Shown: piece after piece, positions 13,859 to 51,935 of the stretch
Layout: each line of letters begins with the position of its first letter
How positions within the stretch are numbered: position 1 is the stretch's first letter
Assembly (NCBI GenBank): GCA_000435515.1
Contig: FR884157.1
Coordinates: 17,920-78,322, forward strand
Reading direction: 5' to 3'
Source: Firmicutes bacterium CAG:582
GTDB taxonomy: Bacteria > Bacillota_I > Bacilli_A > RF39 > UBA660
DNA length: 60,403 nucleotides
Position numbers and translations under genes: made by a program
Notes under the pieces: model-generated
What the model was told of the DNA's origin: nothing
Database searches by the model: none
What the model saw: the letters and a program-made list of their open reading frames with translations, nothing else

Positions 13859-13927
13859 CTAACTTTCTCTCTATAATTTTTTAAATATTCGGTAATTTTA
13901 CATTTTCTCATAAAGTATACTTATTTC

Positions 13928-14779: not shown

Positions 14780-14891
14780 TTATAACCTCCTCCTCTATTT
14801 CAAATTTAAATAACTCAATAACATCTTTACATTTTTTGCGTTGTATCCTATATACTAATATCTTATTGTTAGATAATTATTTTTTTTATTA

Positions 14892-15515
14892 CTAATACAT
14901 CATATCTATAAAAGTCATTACAACGTCTTTTATACCCATTTTTTCTGCGTACAAAGATAGCTTGTTGAGATCTTTATCCTTTCTTTTTAAATACTTTCTT
15001 ACACTATATTTAATAAGTTCTAAATCTATTCTATTTTTAGATCTAATAATATCACATATACATCTTTCAATATCATATGCTTTAACTTTATTACCCATAG
15101 GAGTTTTTACTTCAATAAGGCCAAGTTCATAAATATCATTATCAACATAAAACACATTATGTTTTCTTAAGTGAATACTATTATAGTTTCTCTTTACAGT
15201 TATATCATAGACTCCATTTGGATCTTTTAAAGATAATCCATGAAAATATAAAGCTGTTATGTGAGAAAATATTACATTAGGCATACTTATACCGAAAACA
15301 TAATAATTATCAACATTATTTTTAGTATCAATATAAATACCTGATGCCACTTTTTTTATAATACATTTATCCTGCATAATTGAAAGATACATTCTGTGTA
15401 TATCAAACATATCAAGTTCTTTTGAAGTAATATATCCATTATTTCTTTTCATAAGTTCTTCAATAATTTCGATATTGCTCTTATCTTGAAACTCCTTTAT
15501 AGTTAATTTTTCCAT
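14892..15515 (-). CDS. AbiEi-like (type IV TA antitoxin / wHTH regulator family) protein
   Basis: N-terminal GYITSKEL....L......II.KVASGIYID and C-terminal ERCICDIIRS. It is a clear paralogue of ORF 25893-26501. Confidence 0.65.
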   Translation of the reverse strand: MEKLTIKEFQDKSNIEIIEELMKRNNGYITSKELDMFDIHRMYLSIMQDKCIIKKVASGIYIDTKNNVDNYYVFGISMPNVIFSHITALYFHGLSLKDPNGVYDITVKRNYNSIHLRKHNVFYVDNDIYELGLIEVKTPMGNKVKAYDIERCICDIIRSKNRIDLELIKYSVRKYLKRKDKDLNKLSLYAEKMGIKDVVMTFIDMMY

Positions 15516-15590: not shown

Positions 15591-15618
15591 AAAAAATACC
15601 AGATTACGCTGGTATTAT
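15591..15618. repeat. 28-bp direct repeat, copy 2 (true amidase stop codon plus terminator)
   Basis: aaaaaataccagattacGctggtattat overlaps the amidase stop at 15604-15606. On the minus strand the hairpin is followed by a T-run. Confidence 0.85.
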
Positions 15619-16362
15619 TAATTCTTTTCCTATACTCAAAACATTACTAGTTAAGTTATTAGCAACTTTTATAGCATTAACTGTTGTATTATATTTTCTT
15701 GCTATTGAATATAATGTATCTCCTGGTTTTACTATATGTGTTTTTACATCAAAACTGTTTGGTATAATAAGTTCTTGTCCAATTGATAAGGTATCTGATT
15801 TTAAATTATTAAGTTCTTTAATTTTGCTAACTGTTGTACTATATTTTTTAGCTATTGAATAAAGAGTATCACCTTTCTCAACCACATATGCATTAGTAGT
15901 TTGATCTTTCTTTTTATCGTTAACTAACAATTTTTGATTAACAGAAATCATATTGTTTTTTAAATTGTTCAAATCTTTTAACTTATCAACAGTTATTCCG
16001 TATTTTTTAGCTATTGAATATAATGTATCTCCTGATTTAACAATATAATAGTCTAGATCATCTTTGGAGTAACCAATATAATCTAAAAGAGCTTCTAAAG
16101 TTGCATATGCATAACGTTCATAATTTTTCTTTAATTTAGCTGCGTCTTTAGTATTATCCAAAAAGCCATATTCCACAATTATTGATTCATAAGGAGCTGT
16201 ATCTCTTAACATAAAATAATAATCTTTACTTGGATTAGATGTTCCACGTTTTTGATAGTATTTTCTGATTGTTTGACCATTTTTAGCAAGCTCATTTAAC
16301 ACTTTGGAGGACAAAGTTTCATTATTACGTAGAGCATAAATTACTTCGGCGCCTTCAGCACC
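15604..16362 (-). pseudogene. C-terminal fragment of N-acetylmuramoyl-L-alanine amidase (end of Amidase_3 domain plus 3 LysM repeats)
   Basis: It begins mid-domain with GAEGAEVIYALRNN. There are three repeats of Y.VK.GDTLYSIAKKY..TV..I...NNL.S..L.IGQ.L. It has no native start; the TTG in the ORF track is fortuitous. Confidence 0.85.
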
Positions 16363-16384
16363 AGGCAATAATCAAAGTGTAACG
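16363..16384. repeat. left terminal inverted repeat / att half-sites
   Basis: aggcaataatcaAAgtgtaacg is the reverse complement of 29111-29131 except for the central AA/TT. Confidence 0.85.
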
Positions 16385-16389
16385 TTTTG

Positions 16390-17241
16390 CTATTTTTTTG
16401 ATAAATTCATTATATAATTTCCAACTACTTCTTTATTTTCATTTATCTCTTGTTGTAAATTCGACCAATCATTTTTCAGTTTTTCTACTTCATCTTTATA
16501 TTTATCTGTAAAGTGTTCATTAATTTCCCAATGAAGGTAATCTTTATATTTATTAGTATAATCTTCTGTTAACTTATTTTTATCTACCCTAGAACATAAT
16601 AGTGTAAATCCCATGAATATACAAAAGGCATCTATATGGTCTTTATTATCATTAGTTAAATATATTAAAGATGAATATATTAATATTTCTAAAAAATAAG
16701 CAATTAGATAAAAATATAAAGCAAATAAATCTTCATCATTATTTTTATTAACTTCTATCATCATACTAACTACAATTGAACTATGTGTATACAAACATAA
16801 CTTTTCATAAGTTTCTTCTAATAATGATTGTAATTCATCATCCTCAAATTCTTCAAATAAAACTGGATTAATTTCTTTTAATTTAGATTTAAAATTATTT
16901 AATATTGCTGTAGGACGAGTATTTTTGCTTTTACCACATTTTTCTAAATTTTTAAATTCTTCAAATGTCTCTGTTGGGTCAAAAAATATCATCATTGCCA
17001 TCATTATTTTTTCCATACACGAACGCATCAATGTTGCAGAATCCACTAAGTCTTTTTTTCTTAAAAGTTTATAAACATTATTAATTGTATTATTAGCTTG
17101 TTGTAATAGATTAATTGTTTCAATACTAACATCTTCTGTAACCGATAAATTCTTCAGATATTTCTTTATATATCTTCTCATTGGTTTTACAAAATTAGTC
17201 TTTACTAATTGTTCAACAAATATCATATTCTTTTCTTCCAT
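16390..17241 (-). CDS. hypothetical helical protein (283 aa), downstream of the recombinase
   Basis: ORF with a good SD (aggggga-N5-ATG). No motif recognised. Confidence 0.5.
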   Translation of the reverse strand: MEEKNMIFVEQLVKTNFVKPMRRYIKKYLKNLSVTEDVSIETINLLQQANNTINNVYKLLRKKDLVDSATLMRSCMEKIMMAMMIFFDPTETFEEFKNLEKCGKSKNTRPTAILNNFKSKLKEINPVLFEEFEDDELQSLLEETYEKLCLYTHSSIVVSMMIEVNKNNDEDLFALYFYLIAYFLEILIYSSLIYLTNDNKDHIDAFCIFMGFTLLCSRVDKNKLTEDYTNKYKDYLHWEINEHFTDKYKDEVEKLKNDWSNLQQEINENKEVVGNYIMNLSKK

Positions 17242-17306
17242 TTTGTTCCCCCTATAAGTAGTTTATCTATTTCTATGTTTTCCTTGTTCCAATAGGAACA
17301 AAGTTT

Positions 17307-18896
17307 TTAAATATTATTTAATATACTAAATTTGTAAATTATTTCAATATTTTTATCTTTATCTATTACTATTTTATCAATGATAGCTTGCATTAATTCC
17401 CTAGTTGGATTTTCTAAGTCAATTAATGCTTCTATTTTATCCTCATATTTTTTTACATCATCTGTCTTATTTTGCATATCCTTTTCATCTGCCTTTAACT
17501 TCTTTATTTCAGTCCTTGATTTAGTTAACAATACTTCAGTTTCATTAGCTATTCTTTTATACATCTCATCTGATACTAATCCTCTAAACTTATCTTCATA
17601 TAGCATATCTAATTTATTAAGAAGATCTTTTTCTTTTTTTTCTAAATCAAATATTCTTGCTTCTATTTTAAGATTATTTTTCTTTCTATCTTTTAATTCA
17701 AGTGCAAGATTTGGTACATTAATCGCTTCCAAATACTTTTTACATGTGTTTTTAATAACTTCTAGTAATGCTTCTTCTAATTTATCATAAGGCATAAAAT
17801 GTGGATAACATAAATGTCTTCTTGGATCTCTTGAATACTTATTACAATTAATTGTCCAATAATCATGATTCTTTCTATAAGTAATAGTTAGTGTATTGCT
17901 GCATTCCTTACAATATAATAGATTTTCAAATAATCTTTTTTCTCTTTTAGTTATATTAGTAATATTGGTTCTTTTAACATTTCCTTGTATTTTTTCAAAA
18001 ATCATTCTATCTACAAGAGGTTCATGAGTATTTTTAACTATAATCCAATTTTCTTTTGGAACGGCCAATTTCTTTTTAGTTTTATACCCTCTTTTATACT
18101 GAATATTTTGAACCATATCACCAACATACATTTGATTTTTAAGTATCTTTTTAACAGAAGATATTGTCCAAATAGAATTATATTTACTCCTTGCGCGAGG
18201 ATTTTTTCTTTTGAGACTACTTGGTGTTTTAATTTTACTATCATTTAAATAAGTAGTTATTTCTGATAAACCAACTCCATCATTAGCCATTTCAAATATT
18301 TTCTTAACCACAGGTGCATATTCAGGATCTGGTAGTAAGTGTCCTTTATCATTAGGATCTCTCATATATCCATAACTTGGAGCACTACCAATAAATTTTC
18401 CTTTTCTTTTTTTATATTCTAATACATTTCTAATTTTAACTGAATTTTGTTTACTATAAAAATCATTACATGCAAATATAAACATTACAGAATCATTACT
18501 TGATTTTAATTTAAAATTATCATAACTTTCTTGTATAGATATAAATCTTATACCATTTTCAGGAAAATAATTTTCAACATAATAACCTGTTAGTATATGA
18601 TCTCTTCCTAATCTTGATAAATCTTTAACTATTACAAGATTTATGAGTCCTTTTTTCAAATCTTCCATCATTAGATTAAATCCCGGTCTATCAAAATCAG
18701 TACCAGAATAGCCATCATCAACATATTCTCCTACAAAGATAAAACCATTGTCCTTTACGAATTTCATTAGCATATTTCTTTGATTAAGGACACTCTCACT
18801 TTCTGATTCGTAAGATTTTCCTTGATCGGCTTCAGATAATCTTATATATATTCCTGCTTTGTAAAACTCTGGTGCTTTTACTGTATTGTTATACAT
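17307..18896 (-). CDS. large serine recombinase (integrase)
   Basis: Resolvase-type N-terminus AGIYIRLSEADQ, DGYSGTDFDRPGF and VKDLSRLGRD. It also has a recombinase domain, a Cys-rich zinc ribbon (CKECSN...NCNKY...C) and a C-terminal coiled coil. 529 aa; SD aaggag. Confidence 0.9.
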   Translation of the reverse strand: MYNNTVKAPEFYKAGIYIRLSEADQGKSYESESESVLNQRNMLMKFVKDNGFIFVGEYVDDGYSGTDFDRPGFNLMMEDLKKGLINLVIVKDLSRLGRDHILTGYYVENYFPENGIRFISIQESYDNFKLKSSNDSVMFIFACNDFYSKQNSVKIRNVLEYKKRKGKFIGSAPSYGYMRDPNDKGHLLPDPEYAPVVKKIFEMANDGVGLSEITTYLNDSKIKTPSSLKRKNPRARSKYNSIWTISSVKKILKNQMYVGDMVQNIQYKRGYKTKKKLAVPKENWIIVKNTHEPLVDRMIFEKIQGNVKRTNITNITKREKRLFENLLYCKECSNTLTITYRKNHDYWTINCNKYSRDPRRHLCYPHFMPYDKLEEALLEVIKNTCKKYLEAINVPNLALELKDRKKNNLKIEARIFDLEKKEKDLLNKLDMLYEDKFRGLVSDEMYKRIANETEVLLTKSRTEIKKLKADEKDMQNKTDDVKKYEDKIEALIDLENPTRELMQAIIDKIVIDKDKNIEIIYKFSILNNI

Positions 18897-19106
18897 TTAT
18901 ACTCCTTTCTTCTTGTATAACAAATTAAAGCCAATTATATTGTACCATAAAGAACAATATAACACCATTGTTCTACTCATTATCCATCACTCTTTTTATA
19001 TAATTAGTTATCAACAAGGTCAAATTAGGAGAATCTTTTTTAAATGTTTCTATTATATTAAACATAAGTCACCTCTTTATAGTGTATGACTTTGTTAAAC
19101 AATTAA

Positions 19107-19619
19107 TTATTCATCTCCTTTTGTTATTTCATTTATTAATGCTTCTAATTTTTTAATTTCCTCTTCACTCATAGGTTCTGGTACTGTAGGTTTACCATTC
19201 CAAGATATGATATTACCTTTATCATCATATTCTATAACAGGACCTATATTTTTTCTTATATTATTATTTTTATTATATTGTTTAAAGTTTTCTTGAATAC
19301 TAGTATTAAGATTTTCTTGTATATCCGATATTCTTTTTTTGAATGCCTCTGATATTTTAATTTTTCTTTTTTCTTTCTTAATGTGCTTTACAACAATATA
19401 ACCATATTTAGATAAACTACTTATACTCTTTGATATTGTTTGTTTACTAACACCAAATCTCTCACTAAAATACTCATTAGTAGCCCAACAATATCACATT
19501 TTCTTGCAAAGTGACAAAATATAAATTAATAGTAATCTTTCAAGTGGTGTTAAATTCTTATCTCCCAATAAACTTGTTGGAAAAACTAATTTAATAAAAG
19601 GTTCAATATCTCTTTCCAT
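19107..19619 (-). pseudogene. winged-HTH (HTH_36 / replication-initiator-like) gene interrupted by one in-frame TGA
   Basis: My own translation gives MERDIEPF...LTPLERLLLIYILSLCKKM-TGA-YCWATNEYFSERFGVSKQTISKSISSLSKYGYIVV... The frame is 171 codons long with a stop at codon 42 (19494-19496). Confidence 0.55.
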
Positions 19620-19875
19620 ATTCATTGATATAAGATTACCTTAATAGTCTATTATTTGTCAGTCTTTTAGAGCATAAGAAAAAGAACTGAACAAAGAATA
19701 GTACAGCAATTCTAGAAATACACTAGTACTTCCCTTTAATTTTGGCACTTCATTCTTGTTAAGTTCTTATTGAGAACATTGCATAAACTTCCTTTAATAA
19801 AGTCGACTTTTTCGAGCACACTCGTTGTGCCCTAATTTAATTATAGCAAATTTTTGCAAAAATTTCAATCTTTGC

Positions 19876-21297
19876 CTAAATTGAAGATGGAGATTTTTTT
19901 ATTGTTCCATCAATTTCTATGATTGAACAATTAGAAATATTAGTTTTCTTTTCTTTGTAAAATCTTTCAATTGAATTTCCGTTATCAATCTTGACTATTA
20001 CATAAAATGAGTATGTTGATTCATATCTTTTAATATATATTGGAAGTTGCTTATCATACCCATGAATTAAATTGTTTTTGCTTAATTTAAATTCAATTAA
20101 AATCTTTTCTTTCATATTGTAAATCACAAATTCTATTTGCCCATTACCAACCTTTGGTTCAAATGAATAATCATATAGTTTTAGTTGCTTTGCTACCTCT
20201 AACACTATAATAAATAATCTATGACTTGTAACTTCTTTTCTAACATTACGCCTCTTTGTCTTTGAATCGATATAATAAAGTTCCTCATTTAAGCCTAAAT
20301 CTTCTAGACATCTCTTATAAACAAATAATAATTTATTTACAAATTCCTGTAATGAATTAGATGATTTTGTTAATTCTATAAAAACTTTTTTTTGTTCTAA
20401 TACCTTTTCTCTTATTACTTCTAGGTTATTTACAATCCCTAATGGGTCATGGGAATAATCATATATTTCTGCTTCTTTCATGTTTCCCTCATAAAGTAAT
20501 TGTTCCAATAATTCCTTATTTCCTAATAAGCATTCACGCATTTTTTCTTTTTTAGTTTCATTTATAGCCGAAATATTGATATATGCTGTATTAAAAAACT
20601 CACATAAATACTCTTTGATTTTTTGATTGTATTCAGATATTGATTGTATATCATAACCATTTAAAACATCGGGTATTTCACTTAATAAATCTGCTGGTAA
20701 TAAAAATAGTAATTTGCCACTTGGCCTTTTTAAATACTTTAATCCTGTTTCATAATTTATATAATAATCTTTTATACACAATTTTTCTATCATATTGTTT
20801 GAATATAAGCATAAATCATCATATATTATTCTACATATCATATCGCTTATTCTATCAACACCAATATTTTCTTGAACTAAAAATAATAATCTATACATAG
20901 TTGGATCATCAATATCTTGATTAACTATTTCCTTCAAAGTTAACAAACATTTTTCAGCTGTTTTTCCAGTTAAACCATTGCCGTCAGTTGATTTCATACT
21001 TGTACCCAGCCCAATACCACTTGGTTCCGGAAAGTTAAAATGCTTTTTAACTGCTTTCCAATACAAATCATTACAATTCGTTTTTTTCAATAGATTTATG
21101 GTTGTTTGATAATGTTCTATAATTTTTTGCTTAGAATTTTTAAATTCAGGTATATTACATTCTGACAATAATTTTGGGTTTAAGAATAATGGAGTATCAA
21201 AATATACTAACGAATCCAAAACACCTAATTTTTCAAATATTTCAGATTTAATATTATAATAATCACTTATTTTTATTAATAGACTATCCTTATTCAT
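19876..21297 (-). CDS. PD-(D/E)xK nuclease-domain protein with QxxxY motif (RecB/Cas4/DUF4263 Shedu-like C-terminus), novel N-terminal region
   Basis: The C-terminal ~90 aa read FEPKVGNGQIEFVIY...ILIEFKLS...DKQLPIY, matching the E/D...ExK...QxxxY pattern. Strong SD aggagg. 473 aa. Confidence 0.55.
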   Translation of the reverse strand: MNKDSLLIKISDYYNIKSEIFEKLGVLDSLVYFDTPLFLNPKLLSECNIPEFKNSKQKIIEHYQTTINLLKKTNCNDLYWKAVKKHFNFPEPSGIGLGTSMKSTDGNGLTGKTAEKCLLTLKEIVNQDIDDPTMYRLLFLVQENIGVDRISDMICRIIYDDLCLYSNNMIEKLCIKDYYINYETGLKYLKRPSGKLLFLLPADLLSEIPDVLNGYDIQSISEYNQKIKEYLCEFFNTAYINISAINETKKEKMRECLLGNKELLEQLLYEGNMKEAEIYDYSHDPLGIVNNLEVIREKVLEQKKVFIELTKSSNSLQEFVNKLLFVYKRCLEDLGLNEELYYIDSKTKRRNVRKEVTSHRLFIIVLEVAKQLKLYDYSFEPKVGNGQIEFVIYNMKEKILIEFKLSKNNLIHGYDKQLPIYIKRYESTYSFYVIVKIDNGNSIERFYKEKKTNISNCSIIEIDGTIKKSPSSI

Positions 21298-21323
21298 AAA
21301 ACTCCTCCTAATATAACATATAC

Positions 21324-22835
21324 TTATAAAACATTATTACTTTCAAATAATTCTTGTCTCTTTGATAAAAACGTTTTAGTTCTAGGTGTTAATACTTCAT
21401 CTGGCAATTTATCATTATATGTTATTAGATCAAAAAACATTTTGCTTTCTTCAGTTGCATCCAATTTGATAAGAATCTTTCCATCTTTTGAATCAAAACA
21501 ATAATAGTTACTATCAAATAAACCATGATGGTTACTACATAGCCAAACTCCATTATCTCCAGAATTTGCAAGAACGTATTTTTTGTAAAATGATTCATTA
21601 CAATGTTCATTATTCTTATCAATTAAATCTTTCATTTCAGGTTTTGATATTATAGCATTAATTTCCCCAGATGCTGTATTTTTTATATCACCTACTCCCC
21701 ACAAGTGTGCAGCCTCAAGAATATGTTCAATTTCACATCCACATAAATAACACTTAGTTTGAATACCTTTTTGCCTAATATTATTCTTAAACAATTCTTG
21801 ATTTCTTAGAATATTATTACTTTTTGCCTTTTCATACTGATTTTTTTCTCTTTCAAATTGATGCAATATTTCTTCAGATGTCTCGTAGTGTATATCCAAA
21901 TTTGCTTTTTCAATTAACTTTAATATTGGGCCAGTAAAGCCAGTTGATTGTTTATAATTTTCTTTACCATCACTAAGATTATATAGTTGTGTCCCGAATA
22001 AAAATTCTAAATCTTTATTCTCTTTTTTTGCAAGTATAATTAATGTCCACATCGTAAAGAAACTATCATAACCTTCTGCAGATAATGTTTTAAAAGTATA
22101 AATATATTTTTGATTAGGAATAATATGTACTCCATCTTCATCTATTTCATCTTTTGTAATATCATAGTTTTCATCAATACATTTTAAATATGAAGGTACA
22201 TTTCCAATATTCTTCTTTGATAAATACAATATATCATTTGCAAATTTATTAAATGAGATATATTTAATATCATCATGTGTTTCTTCCATACTAAAACCTA
22301 ATTGTTCATATTCTTTAAATGATATTTCATCAAGATTTAATATATCAAATCCAATAGTCGCTAACTTTCTATAATTCATAAGATTAGACAAATTTTTAGC
22401 ATAAGTTGTATTTGTATCTAATAAATAAAAATATAATTTAACATCTTTAGCGCTATTTTTAACATCATAATAATATTCAAAAACCTTATTTAATCCCTGA
22501 AATAAATATGTATTAGAATGATAACCATCTTTGCCATACACATACTTTCCACCTACTGTTTCTACTTCTTTCTTTTTATCTTCATCAAAGTTAGTATTTG
22601 AAAATCCTATAATATATTTTAATTTATCATTCTCAAAAACAGATATTGTTCTATTATGTTTATCAACAGATCTTTGAGCTTGTATAGTGGCACCTGGTAA
22701 TTCTTCAATCGAAATCTTAATTTTGTCAGGATCAATATCGACATTATCTTTTTTATATGCCCTTTTTATAGCGTCTTTATAAAATTTTTTATAAGTCGCA
22801 TAATTACAATTAAATATTTTAGCAACTATTTCCAT
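21324..22835 (-). CDS. HNH-type restriction endonuclease (probable type IIS R subunit)
   Basis: The C-terminal CYLCGCEIEHILEAAHLWGV....NGVWLCSNHHGLFD matches the HNH_2-type motif of restriction enzymes. The large N-terminal region is presumed to be the recognition domain. I moved the start to the ATG preceded by ggagg; the ORF track begins 12 nt upstream. Confidence 0.7.
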   Translation of the reverse strand: MEIVAKIFNCNYATYKKFYKDAIKRAYKKDNVDIDPDKIKISIEELPGATIQAQRSVDKHNRTISVFENDKLKYIIGFSNTNFDEDKKKEVETVGGKYVYGKDGYHSNTYLFQGLNKVFEYYYDVKNSAKDVKLYFYLLDTNTTYAKNLSNLMNYRKLATIGFDILNLDEISFKEYEQLGFSMEETHDDIKYISFNKFANDILYLSKKNIGNVPSYLKCIDENYDITKDEIDEDGVHIIPNQKYIYTFKTLSAEGYDSFFTMWTLIILAKKENKDLEFLFGTQLYNLSDGKENYKQSTGFTGPILKLIEKANLDIHYETSEEILHQFEREKNQYEKAKSNNILRNQELFKNNIRQKGIQTKCYLCGCEIEHILEAAHLWGVGDIKNTASGEINAIISKPEMKDLIDKNNEHCNESFYKKYVLANSGDNGVWLCSNHHGLFDSNYYCFDSKDGKILIKLDATEESKMFFDLITYNDKLPDEVLTPRTKTFLSKRQELFESNNVL

Positions 22836-22847
22836 AACTACCTCCAC

Positions 22848-24725
22848 CTAATAATTTATCACTATTATCTCTTGTCTATCTTGCCTATTTCTCAATGTCA
22901 TTTTGTCATTTTTTATTACTGTATATCCATTGTCTTTAATCCATTTTTTTAAATGTTGATTTTCTATCGAATTCCTTGTCATCATATTAGATAGCATAAA
23001 TTTTATACCTCTTTTATGAAGTCTAGTTAAAAACTCCAATAATTCTTTTTCTTGTGTTTCATCCCAACCATTAAATCCTCTTTTGCCATCGTTGTAAGCC
23101 CCACATGAATTCAAATAAGGTGGATCGCAGTATACAAAATCACCCTTTTCTATATCTTTTTCAAATCTTTTATAATCCATTGATTTGAATACTATATTCA
23201 TGCTTTTTGCTTTAATAGAATACGAAACTAGCTTTTCTAACATCTCTTGATTATATCCTGAATTTCCACATGGATTGTTAAATTCCATTTTATTATTAAA
23301 TCTTATTTGATGTTCAAAACCATAACATATTAATAAATATAAATCCAAAGGATTTCTTGAACCTTTTTCCAAAGAATTATACTTATCTCTAAACAAGTTG
23401 TATGCTTCCTTATTCTTTTTTTCTAAACCATATTTTTTTATAGTTTTTTCTATGTAATTATAAGTTGTAAAAAATTGGTCATGTGCTATCTTTTCAAGTA
23501 AATCCCTAACAACCCAATTAATGTCATTATATACAACTTTATCAGCTTTAGCATTTATTGAAACTGTTCCGCCACCACCAAACAAATCATAGAAAGTGCT
23601 AATTTTTTTAGGAAAGTTGTTTTTCAATAAAGGAAGAACATCCCATTTTCCTCCTATATAATTCAATGGTGAAATATAATTTGTATCAAAATCTTTTTCT
23701 ATATAAAATAACCATTCATAATGTTCTTTATTTTTTGTGTTGTTTTTAATTTCTCTATTTACTGCACGAGTACTTTTATATTTTACAAAATTAATTTTTT
23801 TAAATTCGTAGGTACCTTCCTTTGCATATCTTTTTAAAACTTTTTCAATATATTCTTTTGACATAATCCCTGCATCACTGTAGCTAAAAATAATATGTTT
23901 AAAATTAGCATTAGCTATCAACTTTTCAAATTCTTCATGAACATAACCTTTTTTACACCATTTTGATATTTGATTTCCATTATCTCTATGTGCACCTACA
24001 CCATGAGTTTTAGGGTTATCATTTTTTGCAATTGTTTCAAGAACATGATACTGACTAATATATTGAGTTGGTGTATATGGCGGATCTAAATATAAAATAT
24101 CCCCACTTATTTTAGTTATTAAATCATTAACATCTTCAATATATACTTCATTTTGATACTTTGCATTTGGTAATGATTCTAATGGAATAAATTCCATCCT
24201 TTTTACTGATCTTGGATCCCAAATTTTTAGGAAGGCTGAATAAACACCTGCTACATTTGAAACTTTACTAACACTTTCTAATAAACTTCCTATTAAATAA
24301 TACTTTTCATATTCGTTTATTTTCTTCTCATCAAACCATACATCTATTGTATTTCTGATAAAATCAATCATTTTAGCATTTTCATCAGAAAAATATTGTC
24401 TTCCTGAAATAGTTGGTGCAAAATTATTATAGCAAAAACCTGAAACATAATTCGATGTATCTATATTATTAAAATAATCAAATGGATCAAAACCTAATTC
24501 TCTGAAAAAATCTTTATTATATTTTAACTTTCCGTTAGATATTACGTATGAAAAATATAATGTATCATTTGCTAAAATTTCAAATCTATCTTTAAAATAA
24601 TCTCCTACAGCACAAGTCCCGGAAAACAAGTCACAAAAAACTGCTCCTTTTTTGCCAATTTTTTTTTGATTAATCAATTTTTCTAATTTATCTAATAATT
24701 TTGCTTTATTGCCAATATATCTCAT
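22848..24725 (-). CDS. tandem two-domain N6-adenine DNA methyltransferase (Dam/D12 class x2, FokI-methylase-like)
   Basis: Two complete sets of Dam motifs are present: RYIGNKAKLL / FCDLFSGTCAVG / LYLDPPY, and NYIGGKWDVL / FYDLFGGGGTVS / VYCDPPY. I placed the start at the ATG after ggagg. Confidence 0.85.
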   Translation of the reverse strand: MRYIGNKAKLLDKLEKLINQKKIGKKGAVFCDLFSGTCAVGDYFKDRFEILANDTLYFSYVISNGKLKYNKDFFRELGFDPFDYFNNIDTSNYVSGFCYNNFAPTISGRQYFSDENAKMIDFIRNTIDVWFDEKKINEYEKYYLIGSLLESVSKVSNVAGVYSAFLKIWDPRSVKRMEFIPLESLPNAKYQNEVYIEDVNDLITKISGDILYLDPPYTPTQYISQYHVLETIAKNDNPKTHGVGAHRDNGNQISKWCKKGYVHEEFEKLIANANFKHIIFSYSDAGIMSKEYIEKVLKRYAKEGTYEFKKINFVKYKSTRAVNREIKNNTKNKEHYEWLFYIEKDFDTNYISPLNYIGGKWDVLPLLKNNFPKKISTFYDLFGGGGTVSINAKADKVVYNDINWVVRDLLEKIAHDQFFTTYNYIEKTIKKYGLEKKNKEAYNLFRDKYNSLEKGSRNPLDLYLLICYGFEHQIRFNNKMEFNNPCGNSGYNQEMLEKLVSYSIKAKSMNIVFKSMDYKRFEKDIEKGDFVYCDPPYLNSCGAYNDGKRGFNGWDETQEKELLEFLTRLHKRGIKFMLSNMMTRNSIENQHLKKWIKDNGYTVIKNDKMTLRNRQDRQEIIVINY

Positions 24726-24753
24726 AACTTCCTCCACTACTTGTTTTTATTGT

Positions 24754-25590
24754 TTAAAATAACTCTTTTACAATTAAATCTTGTGAATGTAAATTATTAT
24801 TTTTACCTAATAATAAATTTTCATAAAATTTAACTAAGTAACTACTTTCTTCTTTTATATTTAAATAATTATTAAAATAATTACTTCTAACTAATGCATT
24901 TCTAAAATATACTGATTTATCTTTAAATAAAGTATTATCTACTTCATATCCTAAATTAATTAAATATTTTTCAATAAATAATGCTGTAGTTCTAGTATTA
25001 CCTTCTCTAAATGGATGTACTTGCCATATACTAGATGAAAACTTAGTAATATTGTTTATTACTTCTACAACACTCATATCTTTATAATTTTTTTCTTTTT
25101 CTAAAGATATATCATATTCTAATGATTCTTTTAATGTCTTACAATCACCATAAGCTACTGAATCATTATTAAGTATTTTTTCATGTTTAGAAAAATCTAT
25201 ATTTCTAAATTCTCCTGCAAACTCATAAACATCTTGAAATAAATATTTATGAATGTATTTTAAATAATCTACAGATAATTCAAAATTATCAATTTGTAAT
25301 AATTCAACAATTCTCGTTGCTACAAAATCACATTCTAATTCATTATGATTTAATTCTTGTTTTTTATCTTTTTCTATATAATATTCTCTTAATTCTTCCT
25401 CTACTTGTTTAATAGTTAAATTACCACTTACATTTTCTTCTAATAATTTTTCTAAATATTTAGAAGGTTTTAAATTATCAACTTCTTGAAGGCCTATAGC
25501 CATATCCCATTCTAGTTGTTTTACATATCCTTCTGGTTTAATTTCTTCAATATAATCAATATTACTTGAATCCAATTCTTTTTCACTCAT
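24754..25590 (-). CDS. Fic-domain protein with N-terminal VbhA-like segment and degenerate active-site motif
   Basis: HPFREGNTRTTA compares with the canonical HxFx(D/E)GNGRxxR. The N-terminal AIGLQEVDNLKPS..L..L....SGNLT resembles the VbhA antitoxin helix (..RLEGLEP..). Confidence 0.75.
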   Translation of the reverse strand: MSEKELDSSNIDYIEEIKPEGYVKQLEWDMAIGLQEVDNLKPSKYLEKLLEENVSGNLTIKQVEEELREYYIEKDKKQELNHNELECDFVATRIVELLQIDNFELSVDYLKYIHKYLFQDVYEFAGEFRNIDFSKHEKILNNDSVAYGDCKTLKESLEYDISLEKEKNYKDMSVVEVINNITKFSSSIWQVHPFREGNTRTTALFIEKYLINLGYEVDNTLFKDKSVYFRNALVRSNYFNNYLNIKEESSYLVKFYENLLLGKNNNLHSQDLIVKELF

Positions 25591-25594
25591 TTAA

Positions 25595-25900
25595 TTAATC
25601 CCCTATCTTTTCAATATACTTTATTATCACATACTGCCTAATCATTGCCTCTAAAGTACATAACGTATCGTATTGGTTACTACTTATTTCATCATTTGGT
25701 TTAGTATAATAATTAGCAACTTCTATTTTTTCTCTATATTTATTAATAGTGTCAATAATAAACTTTTGAATTTCATCACTTGTTGTTTTGTTAGTCAACA
25801 AATAGTTTTTATATTTATTAATTTTACTTAACTCTTCAAAAATTTCCTTTTTATCTTTTTCATCATTTATACAATCCAAAAAATTCATATTGTCACTCAT
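25595..25900 (-). CDS. small acidic helical protein (101 aa), between the AbiEi-like and Fic genes
   Basis: This ORF overlaps the upstream gene by 8 nt and ends 4 nt before the Fic start. No (S/T)xxxE(G/N) motif was found. Confidence 0.5.
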   Translation of the reverse strand: MSDNMNFLDCINDEKDKKEIFEELSKINKYKNYLLTNKTTSDEIQKFIIDTINKYREKIEVANYYTKPNDEISSNQYDTLCTLEAMIRQYVIIKYIEKIGD

Positions 25901-26501
25901 ATCTTACTGCATAATCTACTAAAGTTCTAACTTTTTCATATATATTAAACACTTTAGAATACTCTAGTAATTTATCTATATCTTTATCACTACTATTAAA
26001 ATAATCGTGTAATATATTATTTTGTAATTCTAAGTCAAAATCATCACTCTTTAAAATATCACAAATACATCTTTCTGCATTATATACTTTAATTGGATTA
26101 TTAAACATATTATTAATTTCTTTAATTCCAATATTATAATATTTATCTGCGACATAGTGCACTTTATAATTACTTAATACTCTTTTCTTACTATTAACAG
26201 TTATTTCTATTTCTTCTTGCAATTCATTTATTAAACCTAGCATACTTAATGCTGTCTTATATGAATATATCGCATCAGGATATCTTTTTTGAAAAACATA
26301 TTCGTCATCAACTAATATATTGCTATCAATATATAAACCATGTGAAACTTTATTTATTAAACCATTATCAACATATTTTTTTATTAATGGTTTACTAATA
26401 TTTAGCTTTAAAAAATCTGATGTAGATATATATCCATGATTAGCATCTAAAAACTGTTTAATTTTATCTTCATTAGTCATAGAATCACCATTTACTTTCA
26501 T
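25893..26501 (-). CDS. AbiEi-like (type IV TA antitoxin / wHTH regulator family) protein
   Basis: GYISTSDFLKL......KKYVDNGLINKVSHGLYID and AERCICDILKS. It is a paralogue of 14892-15515. The true start may be the internal ATG at 26480. Confidence 0.65.
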   Translation of the reverse strand: MKVNGDSMTNEDKIKQFLDANHGYISTSDFLKLNISKPLIKKYVDNGLINKVSHGLYIDSNILVDDEYVFQKRYPDAIYSYKTALSMLGLINELQEEIEITVNSKKRVLSNYKVHYVADKYYNIGIKEINNMFNNPIKVYNAERCICDILKSDDFDLELQNNILHDYFNSSDKDIDKLLEYSKVFNIYEKVRTLVDYAVRYE

Positions 26502-26845
26502 AACAATATTATATCATTTTATTATATTTGAGTAAATAAAATTTACACAATAAAAATAATAAATTTTCAGTAACTGTCAGATACTAATTATATGGGTCTT
26601 AGGATACTCCCTAACAAGCATTAAAGGGTGTGTCAACACCATGCTTGATATATTGTACAAGACTAGTAAGTTACCTCTTGTAAGTGGTGTAATTTTTTTA
26701 TTTTTTCTCAATGTTTTTTTCAAAAAATACTATTAATTTTTATAAAAAATAGCCACCAAATTTAACAAAATCCCATAAAAAAATGCAAAAACATTAAATA
26801 TAATTAATCAAATATTTTCGCATTTTCTTTAAAACAGGTAAATTT

Positions 26846-27127
26846 TTATTTTCTAGGCAAGCTTAATAAATTATCCGATGTTGTAGTATTAGGTGTACTT
26901 TTAACATACTTTTCACCGTTAGAACTTATTGCAGGTATTACATATGGACCATAATTTGATCCTACAGTAATACTTTTAGGATTCGACTTTACATAATCAT
27001 GAATAATAGCTTTTTTATACCATCCATCTTTACTATTAGAAAGATATATTTGATCAATTTCTAGCAAGCTATTTGAATATGCACATCCATTTTTCATTTT
27101 AATTGCTGTTGCAATAAAAGTAGACAT
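26846..27127 (-). CDS. DUF3892 domain protein
   Basis: The C-terminal ...GEKYVKSTPNTTTSDNLLSLP matches the DUF3892 hallmark (..NLLSLP). I placed the start at the ATG preceded by aaaggagg; the ORF track extends 11 codons further upstream. Confidence 0.65.
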   Translation of the reverse strand: MSTFIATAIKMKNGCAYSNSLLEIDQIYLSNSKDGWYKKAIIHDYVKSNPKSITVGSNYGPYVIPAISSNGEKYVKSTPNTTTSDNLLSLPRK

Positions 27128-27202
27128 ATTTCCTCCTTTCTGTTTCTTCAAATGTTGCACTTTGAGATAAAATATGCTACAATTACTACAGGTGTCGGGC
27201 CT

Positions 27203-27233
27203 ATAGTTTCACATTCACTGAAACTATTTTTTT
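27203..27233 (+). terminator. strong hairpin plus T-run on the plus strand, inside the DUF3892 5' leader region
   Basis: atagtttca-cattcac-tgaaactat (9-bp stem) followed by tttttt. No plus-strand gene lies upstream. Confidence 0.45.
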
Positions 27234-27404
27234 ATACAAGAACTCATATACGTAAAATACTTCTCAAATACCCTTGTATGCATTCATTATATATCAATAT
27301 GCATATTTTGTCAAGTTTCAAGTCATTTCTAACTAGCAAAATATATTTTTGAATACACATTTACATTTATTTAAAATATTGTTAGTCTTTTTTGACCAAT
27401 AATA

Positions 27405-27433
27405 TTGACTTTTGTAGCAGAAGATTATATAAT
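27405..27433 (+). promoter_or_regulatory. sigma-A-type promoter of the ATPase gene
   Basis: TTGACT, 17 nt, TATAAT, then SD gaggtg 5 nt before the ATG at 27451. Confidence 0.6.
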
Positions 27434-27450
27434 TATTTTGAGGTGTAATT

Positions 27451-28686
27451 ATGCTTTTAAATATTAAGATAGACAACTATAAAGGTGTAAGTAATAATAT
27501 TAATATTTCTTGTATTGCATCAAATAAAATTAAACATTCTAATAATGATATTTCGAAAATTTCTGAAAAAACAAAGATATTAAAAAATATATGCATAATT
27601 GGTAGTAACGCAAGTGGTAAAACAAGTATATTAAATGCTATAGAAACTGTGCAAGATTTTCTTTTGTTTCCTCATAGGAAAAGCATTTCGAATAACAAAG
27701 ATTTTGATAGTTTTATAAAAAGAATGACACCAGAAGAATTAAAAAAATTTTTAATAGATATAAATACTTTAAAGCTTGGAGAACAAAATAATCTTCGTTC
27801 TAAAGATAAAAGCACTATAGTTTTAGAATTATTTATACCAAAAAGAAAAAATAATATTTCAGGTATATATACTTATACATTAATGTACAAAAGCAATTAT
27901 AAGGAATCCGGCGTTTTATTAGAAAAATTAGAGTATAAAAAAAATTTTGACAGTAAGAAAAATGAAGTTATCTGTTTAGCAAATAATATTATTGAAAGTG
28001 AAATAACTACTACTTTGTTATACCAAAACAACAATAGTAAAAATCAAGAAAAAAATATTGATGATAGAATTAAGTATTATAATACATTTTTTAATGAAAT
28101 GATAAAGCATGTATCGTATTTGGATGGTAGTGAAGGTGTAGATTTGCTTGAAGCCTTTAATAAACATGGTAATAAGTTTGTTGAACTATGTAACATTGCA
28201 GATGATAAAATAATTGATATTACACTTGATGAAAATGAAAAAAAACCAAAAATCTTATTTTGGAATTCAAAAAAAACTTTCTTAACTTTTCCTCAATTAT
28301 CAAACGGAACTAGAAAAATATTAGTTATAGGATCTATTATTCTAGATGCATTAGAAAAAAATAATTTATTGCTTATTGATGAAATAGAATTAAGCCTTCA
28401 CCCAACACTAGTAAATTTTTTAATAAATTTAAATTCTTCAAAGGATTTTAATCATTTTTCTCAATTGATATTTACAACACATTCTCCATTTGTTGCCTTT
28501 TCTATGACAAATGATCAATTATATTATATTAATAATAAAAATAACAATTATTATATATCTAGTATAAGTAACGCTATAAAAAACAATATAATTACAAAAG
28601 ATAAAAATCCTGAAAAAGCTTGGATTGAAGATTTGTTAATTAAAAATCCCGATTTAAATAAAATAAAACATTTTTTAAATAATTAA
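27451..28686 (+). CDS. ABC/SMC-like AAA ATPase (AAA_21-type, defence-island type)
   Basis: Walker A GSNASGKTS, signature-like LSNGTRK, Walker B LLLIDEIELSLHP and FTTHSP. 411 aa. Confidence 0.8.
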   Translation: MLLNIKIDNYKGVSNNINISCIASNKIKHSNNDISKISEKTKILKNICIIGSNASGKTSILNAIETVQDFLLFPHRKSISNNKDFDSFIKRMTPEELKKFLIDINTLKLGEQNNLRSKDKSTIVLELFIPKRKNNISGIYTYTLMYKSNYKESGVLLEKLEYKKNFDSKKNEVICLANNIIESEITTTLLYQNNNSKNQEKNIDDRIKYYNTFFNEMIKHVSYLDGSEGVDLLEAFNKHGNKFVELCNIADDKIIDITLDENEKKPKILFWNSKKTFLTFPQLSNGTRKILVIGSIILDALEKNNLLLIDEIELSLHPTLVNFLINLNSSKDFNHFSQLIFTTHSPFVAFSMTNDQLYYINNKNNNYYISSISNAIKNNIITKDKNPEKAWIEDLLIKNPDLNKIKHFLNN

Positions 28687-28688
28687 TA

Positions 28689-28720
28689 AAAAGATTCAGT
28701 TTAGTTTGAATCTTTTTTTG
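28689..28720. terminator. bidirectional intrinsic terminator
   Basis: aagattca-gtttagtt-tgaatctt, flanked by an A-run and a T-run. Confidence 0.6.
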
Positions 28721-28721
28721 T

Positions 28722-29072
28722 TTAATAATATTTTTCCAGTTTTAATGGATTTCTACCAGTGATTTTTAGATTATATTTTATATTTAATATCTTTTCTATG
28801 GATGGAATTATAATATCAATATCGCATCTACAATTAAAAATATCTACTGCAGAATTAATATGATTATATAGTTTACTATCATCTAAGCATCCTCTTGAAT
28901 AACTATTTGCAATATAAAATGCTACTGCATCTGGTATTACATATCTAATTATATACTCTTCAAAATTATCATAGAAAGGTAAATACTTTTCTTGAAATTC
29001 TTCATCAGATATATTTCCTTCTTCCATTAATTCTTTTTCTTTTGTGTAACTCATATTATAACTAATCTCCAT
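28722..29072 (-). CDS. hypothetical protein (116 aa) at the right end of the element
   Basis: ORF only; acidic N-terminus. It starts 39 nt inside the right inverted repeat. Confidence 0.4.
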   Translation of the reverse strand: MEISYNMSYTKEKELMEEGNISDEEFQEKYLPFYDNFEEYIIRYVIPDAVAFYIANSYSRGCLDDSKLYNHINSAVDIFNCRCDIDIIIPSIEKILNIKYNLKITGRNPLKLEKYY

Positions 29073-29110
29073 TTCTTACTATATTTTTGGCTTTAATTGT
29101 TATACATAGT

Positions 29111-29131
29111 CGTTACACAATGATTATTGCC
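29111..29131. repeat. right terminal inverted repeat / att half-sites
   Basis: cgttacacAAtgattattgcc is the reverse complement of 16364-16384 except for the central dinucleotide. Confidence 0.85.
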
Positions 29132-29395
29132 TCCTCCTGCATTTATGTGATTAGACACAACAATAACATTACTATCATTTCCAAAAGCATTCTTAATTCT
29201 ATTGACTCTTTGAGTTGGACTCAATGTTTCATCTATTTCTCTTGTAATATAAACAGGTATTCCAAGTCTTTTTAACTCATCATACATTATTTTGCTAATT
29301 GCTAAAGTCATATTTTTTTCAATTATATCATTTCCACTTGCACCATTATCAGTACCACCATGACCAGGGTCAATTATAATCTTATAATTATTCAT
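29130..29395 (-). pseudogene. N-terminal fragment of N-acetylmuramoyl-L-alanine amidase (Amidase_3)
   Basis: MNNYKIIIDPGHGGTDNGASGN..EK...L........LGIPVYITR..D..LS...R.......NVIVVSNHINAGGG, then 7 element-derived codons and a stop. SD aggtga. Confidence 0.85.
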
Positions 29396-29418
29396 AGTAT
29401 CACCTAAAATAGTGTATG

Positions 29419-29459
29419 AAAAAAAATGAAATATGGCACTTTTCATATTTCATTTTTTA
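29419..29459. terminator. bidirectional intrinsic terminator between the HEPN-like gene and the amidase start
   Basis: 10-bp stem atgaaatatg / catatttcat, flanked by A7 and T6. Confidence 0.6.
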
Positions 29460-29498: not shown

Positions 29499-30635
29499 TT
29501 AAATTTTTTTTATTCTATCATATTTAAAATCTTTGAGCATTTCATACTTGTTAAAATATTTATACATTATATTTTTCAGAATATTTCTCAATTCTAAATT
29601 AAGATGACCTATAATCCAATTTTCTTCCTTATATTCACCATAATCAAATGTAAAATTTTTCAAATAGTTCTTTTTATACTTAAATAACTCTTTTTTTAAA
29701 CTATTAAAATTACCATGAATTAATCTTGATCTAATATCATATATAAGTGTAGAAAAATTTTCTACATCAATTTCGTTTTCAAATTCTATTGATAGATCAT
29801 CGACAAAAAATTTTAATTTATCTTTTAATTGGCTTCTTGTATCTCTTACTGGGTTAATAATCAGCATTTCAATTAATAAAACATAATTTAACAAAGAATA
29901 TTGACTTTTATCTGCTGATAGCAAAATTTCTGCAATAAAATCCAGTTTAAAATATTCATCAGAGTTAACAACAATTTTGTCATATTTTTTGCCAAATTTT
30001 ATTAATCCATTTATTTTATTAGCAAATTCTGAATTGTAATTTTTATAATATTTATAAAATATATAAGATTGGTTTTCTTCTCTACTTTTGTATGTTTTCT
30101 GCATAAGCATATTAAATATATAACTATCCGGCCAATCAGAGCAACCAGTATTAAACAAGATGTCAAGGTCATTTCTCTTTTTACCTTTACTTCTCTCCAC
30201 AAAATTATATAAAAATAAAAATTTATATTCTATATCATATTCATTAGTAGGATTAATTAATGGCGTTTTATGAAGTTCCTTAGAGAGTTCATCTTCTTTA
30301 CACTCAGAGAAAATTTCATCACCCACTAGTAGCGAACTTTCAGAATATTCATAGTCAAATACAATTATATATTTTGAAATTAATGATAATATTTGAGCTG
30401 CAGTTAATTTAGAAATATCTTTTTTTAATAATCCTGAATAGTATTCATCATTTAAACTACTTAATATTTTTTTCCTAAAATGGTAATCTTTTTCAAAATT
30501 TCGATGATAATCTTCATATAAAAGATACTTAATTTCTTGTCTAAAAAATTTACAATCAGCATTTTTTATATATAAGCCTAACCTTTTAGAAATGCATATA
30601 GGATTTATTTTTTTTAAGCATTCTATTCCCAACAT
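29499..30635 (-). CDS. hypothetical protein with C-terminal HEPN-like Rx4H motif (Abi/Apea-like)
   Basis: 378 aa. YDIRSRLIHGNF fits the HEPN R-x4-H motif in a helical context. Strong SD aggagg. Confidence 0.5.
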   Translation of the reverse strand: MLGIECLKKINPICISKRLGLYIKNADCKFFRQEIKYLLYEDYHRNFEKDYHFRKKILSSLNDEYYSGLLKKDISKLTAAQILSLISKYIIVFDYEYSESSLLVGDEIFSECKEDELSKELHKTPLINPTNEYDIEYKFLFLYNFVERSKGKKRNDLDILFNTGCSDWPDSYIFNMLMQKTYKSREENQSYIFYKYYKNYNSEFANKINGLIKFGKKYDKIVVNSDEYFKLDFIAEILLSADKSQYSLLNYVLLIEMLIINPVRDTRSQLKDKLKFFVDDLSIEFENEIDVENFSTLIYDIRSRLIHGNFNSLKKELFKYKKNYLKNFTFDYGEYKEENWIIGHLNLELRNILKNIMYKYFNKYEMLKDFKYDRIKKI

Positions 30636-50307: not shown

Positions 50308-50344
50308 AGAAAACCTCCTATTTTTATCTTTTTACGATATATTA

Positions 50345-51889: not shown

Positions 51890-51935
51890 TACAAATATGC
51901 AACATATAATAACACATTTTATGCCAAAAGAAAAG

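Follow-up and report, generated by a model that had tools for sequence, protein, structure and literature searches.

A large serine recombinase island within a LysM amidase gene of uncultured gut Bacilli: a candidate sporulation intervening element

Introduction

Elements which intervene in a gene have been described under the names skin, SPbeta, vfbin, vrin, phi3T, yin and gin (PMC4191935, PMC5595907, PMC6957869, PMC10747680). In skin and SPbeta the integrase is constitutive, and a small, sporulation-controlled factor sets the direction of recombination (PMC4191935, PMC5025042, PMC6957869). In Bacillus cereus ATCC 10987 gerE is interrupted by gin, which is not a prophage; gin carries a restriction-modification (RM) system and serine recombinase genes and has no phage genes, and because of this intervening elements with defence cargo already have a precedent (PMC5595907). 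Here, we describe an island of 12,772 bp which splits the gene of a LysM peptidoglycan amidase. It is located in a stretch of 60,403 nucleotides of Firmicutes bacterium CAG:582 (contig FR884157.1, positions 17,920 to 78,322; hereafter the window, with position 1 as its first letter).

The targets of sporulation intervening elements described in the literature searched are sigK, spoVFB, spoVR, spsM, gerE, kamA and yabG. A first-pass annotation of the window knew of no LysM amidase as such a target, and no described case was found in this literature. Likewise, the search returned no paper in which cwlC or an amidase is connected with a serine recombinase, and none in which defence islands with a serine recombinase are connected with sporulation. 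With a probability of roughly 0.55 we consider the island to be a gene-intervening element which is operated by a large serine recombinase (LSR), resides in a CwlC-like mother-cell amidase gene and is excised during sporulation.

The Split Amidase Gene and its att Sites

The amidase gene is on the minus strand. The features which define the split are:

29133..29395, minus strand: 5' fragment of the Amidase_3-LysM gene, codons 1-88 (..SNHINAGG), delimited by alignment to intact alleles; Pfam Amidase_3 positions 1-91 of 174, E=1.2e-18
15604..16360, minus strand: 3' fragment of the amidase gene with the rest of Amidase_3, three LysM repeats and the stop codon (Pfam Amidase_3 positions 83-172 and LysM x3, 3.5e-53)
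15595..15616, minus strand: terminator-like hairpin which overlaps the end of the amidase gene
29108..29160, minus strand: attL, with the host half ..AATGCAGGA, the core GG and the element arm AGGCAATAATCATTGTGTAACG at 29132-29111
16336..16387, minus strand: attR, with the element arm CGTTACACTTTGATTATTGCCT at 16384-16363, the core GG and the host half TGCTGAAGG
29089..29107, minus strand: ATGTATAACAATTAAAGCC, a motif of 19 nt on the element side of attL, past the 22-nt arm

The first-pass annotation had proposed that a block of about 12.8 kb separates the two pieces and that the 3' piece resumes in the middle of the domain and continues into three LysM repeats. Both fragments are as it described them and are matched by Pfam. 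The protein starts with the ATG at 29395 and begins MNNYKIIIDPGHGG; it has no signal peptide and the catalytic domain begins directly at the N-terminus. In the integrated state the 5' open reading frame (ORF) continues after ..NAGGG through 11 codons of the element, instead of the seven counted initially, and ends with the stop at 29095-29093. The 3' frame, 16360->15604 on the minus strand, encodes GAEGAEVIY....

Removal of the element in silico yields an ORF of 1020 nt which encodes 339 amino acids (aa). The alignment of this fused protein across the junction, which had been proposed as a critical point, is free of gaps against intact alleles. A search with the fused protein retrieved the uninterrupted alleles hoped for in relatives: they are 339 aa long, 90-98% identical and located in syntenic contigs (L001-L004) with genes for an aminotransferase, ATP_bind_3 and an HTH protein upstream and a 207-aa protein, a Bro-N protein and LytR downstream. 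The reconstituted amidase differs from one of these alleles (P0001) in 6 of 339 residues. The intact allele reads AATGCAGGAGGTGCTGAAGG (..NAGGAEGAEV..); the junction deduced earlier, ..GGAGGAGGT.., contained one Gly codon too many. Intact alleles are common, thus the window's own species is polymorphic at this site with occupied and empty forms. The amidase gene is chromosomal and adjoins LytR and cell-wall genes in several species. It is no CwlD equivalog according to NCBIfam (83 bits versus a cut-off of 221).

When the intact allele is compared with attL and attR the crossover core emerges as GG, at 29134-29133 and at 16362-16361, and the element spans 16363-29134. Accordingly, attB is AATGCAGGA-GG-TGCTGAAGG, attL is AATGCAGGA-GG-AGGCAATAATCATTGTGTAACG and attR is CGTTACACTTTGATTATTGCCT-GG-TGCTGAAGG. 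The attP arms CGTTACACTTTGATTATTGCCT and AGGCAATAATCATTGTGTAACG are 22 nt long and inverted, matching at 20 of 22 positions; the predicted attP of the window element is CTTTGATTATTGCCTGGAGGCAATAATCATTG. A repeat finder independently reported terminal inverted repeats at 16356-16384 and 29111-29139 (pair I17). In the cytoplasmically produced Amidase_3-LysM peptidoglycan amidase the GG core falls within the codons of ..NAGG|GxGAE.., a conserved motif. An attL junction like that of the window recurs in more than 25 other species, as do the 2-bp core and the inverted arms in more than 25 other elements. The 19-nt motif inside attL is retained across the whole family of related elements (type A, see below) irrespective of the reading frame. 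It holds a second copy, GTATAAC, which is similar to the GTGTAAC of the arm.

The block had also been said to begin with a large serine recombinase gene and to end in inverted repeats. The recombinase and the repeats are there; yet the recombinase gene is second from the attR end, separated from attR by an ORF of 283 aa (16390-17241). Judged by its sequence, block 16363-29134 is a mobile, non-phage island which evidently was inserted by its LSR via attP x attB recombination at GG.

The Genes of the Element

From attL to attR the element carries the following genes and signals:

28722..29072, minus strand: F2, conserved small protein, 116 aa, probably 110 aa with the start at 29054; first gene inside attL
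27451..28686, plus strand: cargo, AAA_21/AbiLi-like ATPase (Pfam AAA_21 3.5e-26; PADLOC AbiLi 5.8e-40)
26846..27160, minus strand: cargo, DUF3892 protein
25893..26501, minus strand: cargo, AbiEi-like antitoxin/regulator (PADLOC AbiEi 8.4e-54; Pfam AbiEi_4)
25595..25900, minus strand: ORF of 101 aa which overlaps the AbiEi-like gene; weak PADLOC and PHROG matches
24754..25590, minus strand: Fic-domain protein, PADLOC candidate system PDC-S72, semi-conserved in the element family
22848..24737, minus strand: double D12-class N6-adenine DNA methyltransferase, a type II methyltransferase (MTase) (Pfam MethyltransfD12 4.5e-67; PADLOC MTase_II 2.8e-181)
21324..22847, minus strand: HNH_2 nuclease (Pfam)
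19876..21297, minus strand: protein of 473 aa (phrog_30194; weak PDC-M36A match)
19626..19868, minus strand: sigmaA-like promoter and, ahead of the Rep-like and LSR genes, a structured leader (about 210 nt) which is conserved in related elements
19110..19625, minus strand: F1, homologue of HTH_36/DnaD-like replication initiators, a backbone gene inactivated in the window copy
17307..18896, minus strand: LSR, 529 aa, intact, type A (Pfam Resolvase 8e-20, Recombinase 4e-25, Zn_ribbon_recom 2e-9)
16390..17241, minus strand: DUF5677-like protein, 283 aa, cargo region 2 between LSR and attR, kept beside the LSR in L009-L021

The LSR matches the integrase family phrog_95 (1.3e-97) and its serine motif, ..YIRLSEAD.., is clearly visible. 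The HNH_2 nuclease probably is the restriction partner of the D12 MTase because the two genes abut stop to start. Together with the AbiEi protein, the AbiLi-like ATPase and the PDC-S72 Fic protein, MTase_II and the HNH nuclease constitute a cluster of defence-type cargo according to PADLOC. No gene for capsid, tail, terminase, portal or holin/lysis proteins was found in the element by Pfam and PHROGs. A phage origin was considered and rejected: identity to the nearest LSR reaches 35% among GenBank phages and 34% in IMG/VR. Defence-type cargo free of phage structural genes had been the initial impression, and a defence island had been considered possible. Both are borne out. Going by gene content the element is a defence island, i.e., several known or candidate anti-phage systems are clustered and the cargo varies from copy to copy.

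The promoter ahead of the leader (19868-19840) is TTGAAA-17-TATAAT with a TG, i.e., an extended -10, and has 11 of 12 matches to the sigmaA type. Within the leader, AAGAACTNAAC and GTTCAGTTCTT form a stem over a long distance, and a T run comes next. The fold of the leader has z = -2.0; its possible roles are those of an attenuator, of an RNA controlling replication or of an origin. In the window copy F1 carries a GGA->TGA nonsense mutation near 19496 (within 19489-19505, minus strand) after 43 residues and, further on, an in-frame deletion of 12 nt, as seen by comparison with L009 and L021. The intact homologue in L009 has 176 aa and matches Pfam HTH_36 and the PHROG replication-initiation families.

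Searches of Pfam, PHROGs, NCBIfam and PADLOC matched no ORF of the window element to a Mob or relaxase family, and TnpV is not in the window element. Rfam families matched nothing inside the element. Base composition including GC shows no contrast between island and flanks. A generic sigma70 promoter scan is uninformative in this DNA of 25% GC because the promoter counts equal those in shuffled sequence.

A Family of Mobile Islands

At 90% identity the LSR clusters in a group of 293 sequences and is found on hundreds of gut-metagenome contigs; copies in many species are 99-100% identical. In a survey in which one genome per species was scanned, LSR relatives (38-100% identity) were present in about 80 species. 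The hosts are labelled as uncultured Bacilli, Mollicutes or Tenericutes bacterium, as Clostridium sp. CAG:433, CAG:710 and CAG:762, and as Mycoplasma sp. CAG:472. One complete metagenome-assembled host genome has only 1.53 Mb.

More than 50 species-representative genomes of uncultured low-GC gut Bacilli possess an LSR 52-100% identical to that of the window together with an amidase gene split at the identical codon. In these genomes the 3' amidase fragment follows 0.2-6 kb after the recombinase and begins at the identical codon; the 5' fragment is 4.2-14.4 kb upstream where the locus reaches far enough, i.e., the elements measure 4.2-14.4 kb. The attP arms differ among sub-lineages, yet they co-vary between the two ends of each element.

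The common backbone was derived from 25 complete elements: attL, F3 (TnpV, PF14198), F2, cargo, HTH_36, LSR, cargo, attR. Elements of the window type are organized as attL, F2, cargo, the HTH_36 Rep-like gene, LSR, more cargo and attR. F3 (TnpV; PF14198, 2e-35) is present in 16 of the 25 and F2 in 19; in the more distant type-A relatives F3 is located between attL and F2. Either F2 or F3 is the first gene inside attL, in amidase orientation, in 22 of the 25, and nearly all element genes share the orientation of the amidase. The cargo of relatives comprises a DpnII RM system with Eco57I, type I RM systems, a MazG/SLFN-helicase/Mrr-nSTAND3 set and Fic proteins.

LSR identity does not follow the identity of the host amidases (Spearman rho 0.07, 1540 pairs), and when two LSRs are at least 95% identical the amidases of their hosts have a median identity of 55%. 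Because cargo is swapped between elements and LSR similarity does not track host similarity, the islands move horizontally between species. Co-divergence of element and host, the ancient vertical inheritance that applies to skin, was rejected on account of the rho of 0.07.

The Amidase Gene as a Target

At least four LSR lineages, which are 28-53% identical to each other, target the amidase gene. Type B LSRs are 53% identical to type A and occupy the type-A site with different arms (TAATCACATA...). A junction 3 bp from the type-A site was our first reading and was dropped; our reading of the arm symmetry in the junction sequences suggests that type B shares the GG core of type A. Type C LSRs (521 aa, 38% identical to that of the window) insert at the GDT|LY codons of a LysM repeat. 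Their elements are small, about 3.3 kb, and leave tails such as ..SGDTVFMGNSE*. Type C loci are L038:14223-18200 as well as L022, L032, L037, L066 and L081, and in the window's own species two truncated proteins (P0038, P0041) show a type-C-like break within the third LysM repeat. Type D LSRs (535 aa, 28% identical; L066:18-1700 and L055:18-950) end less than 60 nt from an amidase fragment which begins with ..HGG, which indicates the DxGHGG codons as another insertion site. The amidase gene is in three pieces in L038 and in four in L066, where type D, A and C elements are present together.

The islands also accrete at the amidase locus, as indicated by tandem and hybrid junctions. A true type-A attP junction is present in a tandem array of Clostridium sp. 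CAG:433 (L061:1800-1870: right arm, GG, left arm, then TnpV and F2). Hybrid junctions of a type-A right arm with the left arm of another element were found at L030:13734, L036:14164, L074:9797 and L061:11510. The attP junction in the tandem array of L061 is indirect evidence that recombination of the attL x attR type has happened in the type-A family. The convergence of several LSR lineages on one gene is a pattern known for mother-cell genes.

Two further observations concern the neighbourhood of this hotspot. A block of 2 kb just downstream of the amidase gene (13517-15515; an AbiEi-like protein of 207 aa, a Bro-N protein of 283 aa and a protein of 113 aa) is not in strains L005-L008, and its genes are close homologues of the cargo families F4 and F6 in type-A elements of other species. 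On the upstream side, next to the amidase promoter, an orphan ORF of 378 aa (29499-30635) is located where L001-L004 have a 277-aa gene on the opposite strand; this is a second variable spot beside the hotspot.

The Amidase Promoter and Sporulation

Two features are relevant for the regulation of the amidase and for the lifestyle of the host:

29410..29437, minus strand: mother-cell-type (sigmaK/sigmaE-like) promoter of the amidase gene, with the -10 CATACACTA at 29418-29410 and GC about 17 nt upstream, followed by the ribosome-binding site (RBS) AGGTGA and the ATG
58892-59230, plus strand: homologue of the spore-coat protein GerQ (PF09671, 1.9e-31)

The textbook consensus of sigmaK is AC-N16/17-CATAnnnTA, and it overlaps the -10 element of sigmaE. 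The upstream regions of 29 orthologous amidase loci were aligned at the start codon, and 1139 ORFs from those loci served as controls. CATAnnnTA is present 8-35 nt before the start codon in 28 of the 29 amidase loci versus 29 of the 1139 controls (2.5%). With the upstream element included, C-N16-CATAnnnTA (the C usually as AC), the score is 25 of 29 versus 2% of the controls. Otherwise the amidase upstream regions are not conserved.

In about 1.4 Mb of related loci the complete motif AC-N16/17-CATAnnnTA plus an RBS precedes 20 ORFs. Fourteen of these are amidases and four are CwlJ-like Hydrolase_2 proteins of 140 aa, encoded in the related host loci examined and not in the window itself. The remaining two are a Tyr/Pro-rich coat-like protein and an ORF of 387 aa inside the L038 element, which I take to be a chance match. 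The conserved C/A positions which flank the -10 and the company of the CwlJ-like genes disfavour a sigmaA reading, and the sequences thus suggest a promoter of the sigmaK/sigmaE type.

In the spore coat of B. subtilis, GerQ is the partner of CwlJ. That the window encodes GerQ was noticed at the outset and is firmly supported by Pfam; upstream of gerQ, CATAGTATT is positioned at a distance from the RBS equal to that of the amidase -10. Quite probably, then, the hosts are spore-formers and the amidase is a member of their mother-cell regulon. The mother-cell lysis amidase of B. subtilis is CwlC, and cwlC is sigmaK-dependent. From its sequence the target gene looks like such a CwlC-like mother-cell sporulation gene; a role of the amidase as a coat-associated cortex hydrolase is equally possible.

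Excision: a Proposal and its Alternatives

How might the island live with a gene it interrupts? In growing cells the split amidase gene would be silent and not needed, so that the island would cost nothing. At sporulation, transcription from the amidase promoter would cross the 264-nt 5' fragment and attL into F2 (into TnpV and F2 in most relatives), since no terminator is predicted between this promoter and F2, which is downstream of it and in the same orientation. F2 would then act as, or control, a directionality factor and turn the LSR to attL x attR recombination; for its own transcription the LSR probably relies on the sigmaA-like promoter inside the element. A circle of 12,772 bp would be excised in the terminally differentiated mother cell, where the 339-aa amidase gene would be restored and expressed; the forespore would retain the integrated copy. 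What the sequences themselves document are the att sites, the exact reconstitution, an intact LSR, the promoter motif, the conserved gene order and horizontal spread; the moment of excision and the tasks of F2 and of the amidase are deduced.

F2 is an orphan family, with 132 members among 5.8e9 proteins, and is confined to these elements. Pfam, PHROG, PADLOC and NCBIfam have no match for it. Its AlphaFold2 model (pLDDT, the predicted local distance difference test, 84.7) consists of helices and a C-terminal beta-hairpin. We regard F2 as a hypothetical directionality or regulatory factor.

Several points weigh against developmental excision. The F2 model has no match in the PDB with E<0.7; the non-significant matches are mostly winged-helix domains, and the fold search revealed no similarity to any known recombination directionality factor. 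F2 co-varies moderately with the LSR (rho 0.42), and linkage within the backbone would by itself account for as much. The motif CATAnnnTA includes TAnnnT and is formally compatible with a sigmaA -10. Sporulation of the hosts, all uncultured, is deduced from GerQ, the CwlJ-like genes and the promoter motif only. The attP junction of an excised circle, ATTATTGCCTGGAGGCAATAAT, was not found in IMG/VR or in JGI metagenome contigs, and a search with a degenerate attP of the 70%-identity group returned nothing. Among contigs which encode F2, circular or tandem forms were not encountered: ten of ten places returned were integrated copies. TnpV is missing from window-type elements and the Rep-like gene of the window has its nonsense codon. 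Finally, LSR similarity is uncoupled from that of the host amidases; insertions may therefore be recent, and intact gene fragments are no proof of selection for reconstitution.

Accordingly, other explanations have to be weighed. The island might be an ordinary integrative element of the Tn4451/TnpX kind, devoid of any developmental coupling, for which a conserved coding motif is a convenient and widely shared attB; the amidase would be redundant, and rare spontaneous excision would serve only transfer. We consider this possible, though on balance unlikely. TnpV, the hallmark accessory gene of LSR transposons of the Tn4451/Tn4453 type, is present in most type-A relatives, and in those transposons the LSR alone reportedly suffices for excision and insertion. 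The rampant horizontal spread, with LSRs at least 95% identical in hosts whose amidases are about 55% identical, the polymorphic carriage in the window's species, where intact alleles are common, and the lack of an attP circle in the collections searched all agree with it. What it leaves unexplained is why four LSR lineages converge on one gene, why this target has a conserved mother-cell-type promoter in common with CwlJ-like genes, and why a conserved small gene is placed just downstream of that promoter. Further, no Mob or relaxase gene was matched in the window element, and the strict target with its single GG core contrasts with the targets of TnpX, which are loose GA sites.

A different view concerns the window copy alone: it may be a decaying, locked-in remnant, unable to excise or replicate, with the amidase permanently inactivated in this strain. 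The premature stop and the 12-nt deletion in the Rep-like HTH_36 gene and the absence of TnpV from the window lineage would fit, as would a broken aldo-keto reductase gene nearby, which suggests ongoing gene decay in a small genome. This appears improbable considering that the LSR is full-length and 99-100% identical to copies in many species, that both att sites are perfect and both amidase fragments undamaged (6 of 339 residues differ), and that F2 is intact. An assembly chimera, or a prophage endolysin gene with the block as a degraded prophage, would at first sight accommodate an Amidase_3-LysM protein that lacks a signal peptide, which is a common endolysin architecture too, and the Bro-N and AbiEi-like genes which adjoin the amidase gene. 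Yet hundreds of independent contigs, from many samples and many species, have these junctions, the amidase gene is chromosomal beside LytR and cell-wall genes in several species, capsid, tail, terminase and holin genes are missing from the element, and the nearest LSRs in the phage and IMG/VR collections are at most 35% identical. This recurrence and the gene content effectively refute the artefact and prophage readings.

Returning to a gene-intervening island excised at sporulation, one may carry the idea further, rather speculatively and with little expectation of being right in every part. The amidase gene would serve at least four LSR lineages as a common landing pad with several sites, and these lineages would carry exchangeable defence cargo between many species of uncultured gut spore-formers with small genomes. 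The target promoter would time excision by read-through into F2, a novel type of directionality factor, and the restored amidase would lyse the mother cell and free an island-bearing spore together with the circle; in this manner sporulation would be coupled to the horizontal spread of defence islands.

If the intervening-element reading is correct, such elements extend to gut Bacilli with reduced genomes, a large and uncultured clade, and to a new class of target, a peptidoglycan amidase; earlier elements are mainly from cultured bacilli and clostridia. It would mean that intervening elements can be actively spreading, modular defence islands instead of fossil prophages, and that several recombinase lineages can use one and the same sporulation gene as a hotspot. 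With one attB in common, dozens of naturally occurring LSR/attP/attB sets would constitute a panel for studies of att-site recognition and for integrase engineering, and F2 would be a concrete candidate for a new directionality factor.

Other Features of the Window

The aldo-keto reductase gene mentioned above (31394-32283, minus strand) consists of two overlapping ORFs which match the Pfam model by one half each and probably represent a frameshifted pseudogene; the copy in L002 is intact with 245 aa. A T-box leader at 57066-57262 on the minus strand (Rfam RF00230, 94 bits) is located upstream of pheS/pheT. Region 48742-53584, also on the minus strand, encodes three tandem paralogous proteins of about 520 aa with a conserved C-terminal region, ..DKMQVVTIxGTKDIISFYPVS..; the first, the one which was searched with Pfam, has N-terminal TPR repeats.

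Comparison With Known Systems

The first-pass annotation likened the locus to skin and SPbeta. The architecture agrees: an LSR element with a 2-bp core and inverted attP arms splits a coding gene, which precise excision would restore. The analogy gains further support from the mother-cell-type promoter motif, the lack of a signal peptide, GerQ in the window and the conserved small gene directly downstream of that promoter. The elements behave as horizontally mobile islands and not as a vertically inherited relic. In skin, which resides in sigK (SpoIVCA/Skr in B. subtilis, CD1231/CD1234 in C. difficile), and in SPbeta, which resides in spsM (SprA/SprB), an element bounded by an LSR likewise splits a gene, whose ORF is restored by precise attL x attR recombination. 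The target apparently is expressed in the mother cell as well. In the window element the LSR is preceded by a promoter of the sigmaA type, while the promoter of the sporulation type has a small conserved gene behind it, and the proposed pair of F2 and LSR would mirror SprA/SprB, CD1231/CD1234 and Int/Rdf of phi3T (PMC4191935, PMC5025042, PMC6957869). In contrast to skin and SPbeta, the target is new, a phage ancestry is not visible, the element spreads between species and is not a lineage-fixed relic, and its excision is a prediction.

The closest conceptual match is gin (GirC/GirX), a non-phage intervening island which carries RM cargo as the window element does. The differences are that gin has three recombinases, a 9-bp core and a distribution limited to the B. 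cereus group, whereas a single LSR and a 2-bp GG core operate here, the cargo is highly variable and the family is present in more than 50 uncultured species.

With Tn4451/Tn4453 (TnpX, TnpV) and clostridial integrative mobilizable elements of the Tn6104 type, which form a circular intermediate, the island shares an LSR with a 2-bp core and, in most type-A relatives, a TnpV homologue at one end. It differs in that no Mob/oriT module was found in the window element, that one specific coding site is used instead of many GA sites, that the window copy is devoid of TnpV and that its LSR has 529 aa versus about 700 aa of TnpX. Among the NCBIfam families the LSR is most similar to XisF (1.6e-26), with a score far short of the cut-off of that family. 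The fdxN element of Anabaena heterocysts, to which XisF belongs, is alike in being excised from a gene in a terminally differentiated cell; the similarity is distant, the phylum is another one, and the target and the accessory factors (XisH/XisI) are unrelated.

As for the target, B. subtilis CwlC also starts with Amidase_3 at residue 1, has no signal peptide and carries C-terminal wall-binding repeats, and the amidase gene described here has a sigmaK-type motif. The repeats are SPOR in CwlC and LysM in the window amidase; the two are likened here as analogues. Set against all these systems, what is new is the target gene, the uncultured host clade, the combination of modular defence cargo with mobility across species, and the use of one gene at multiple sites by multiple recombinase lineages.

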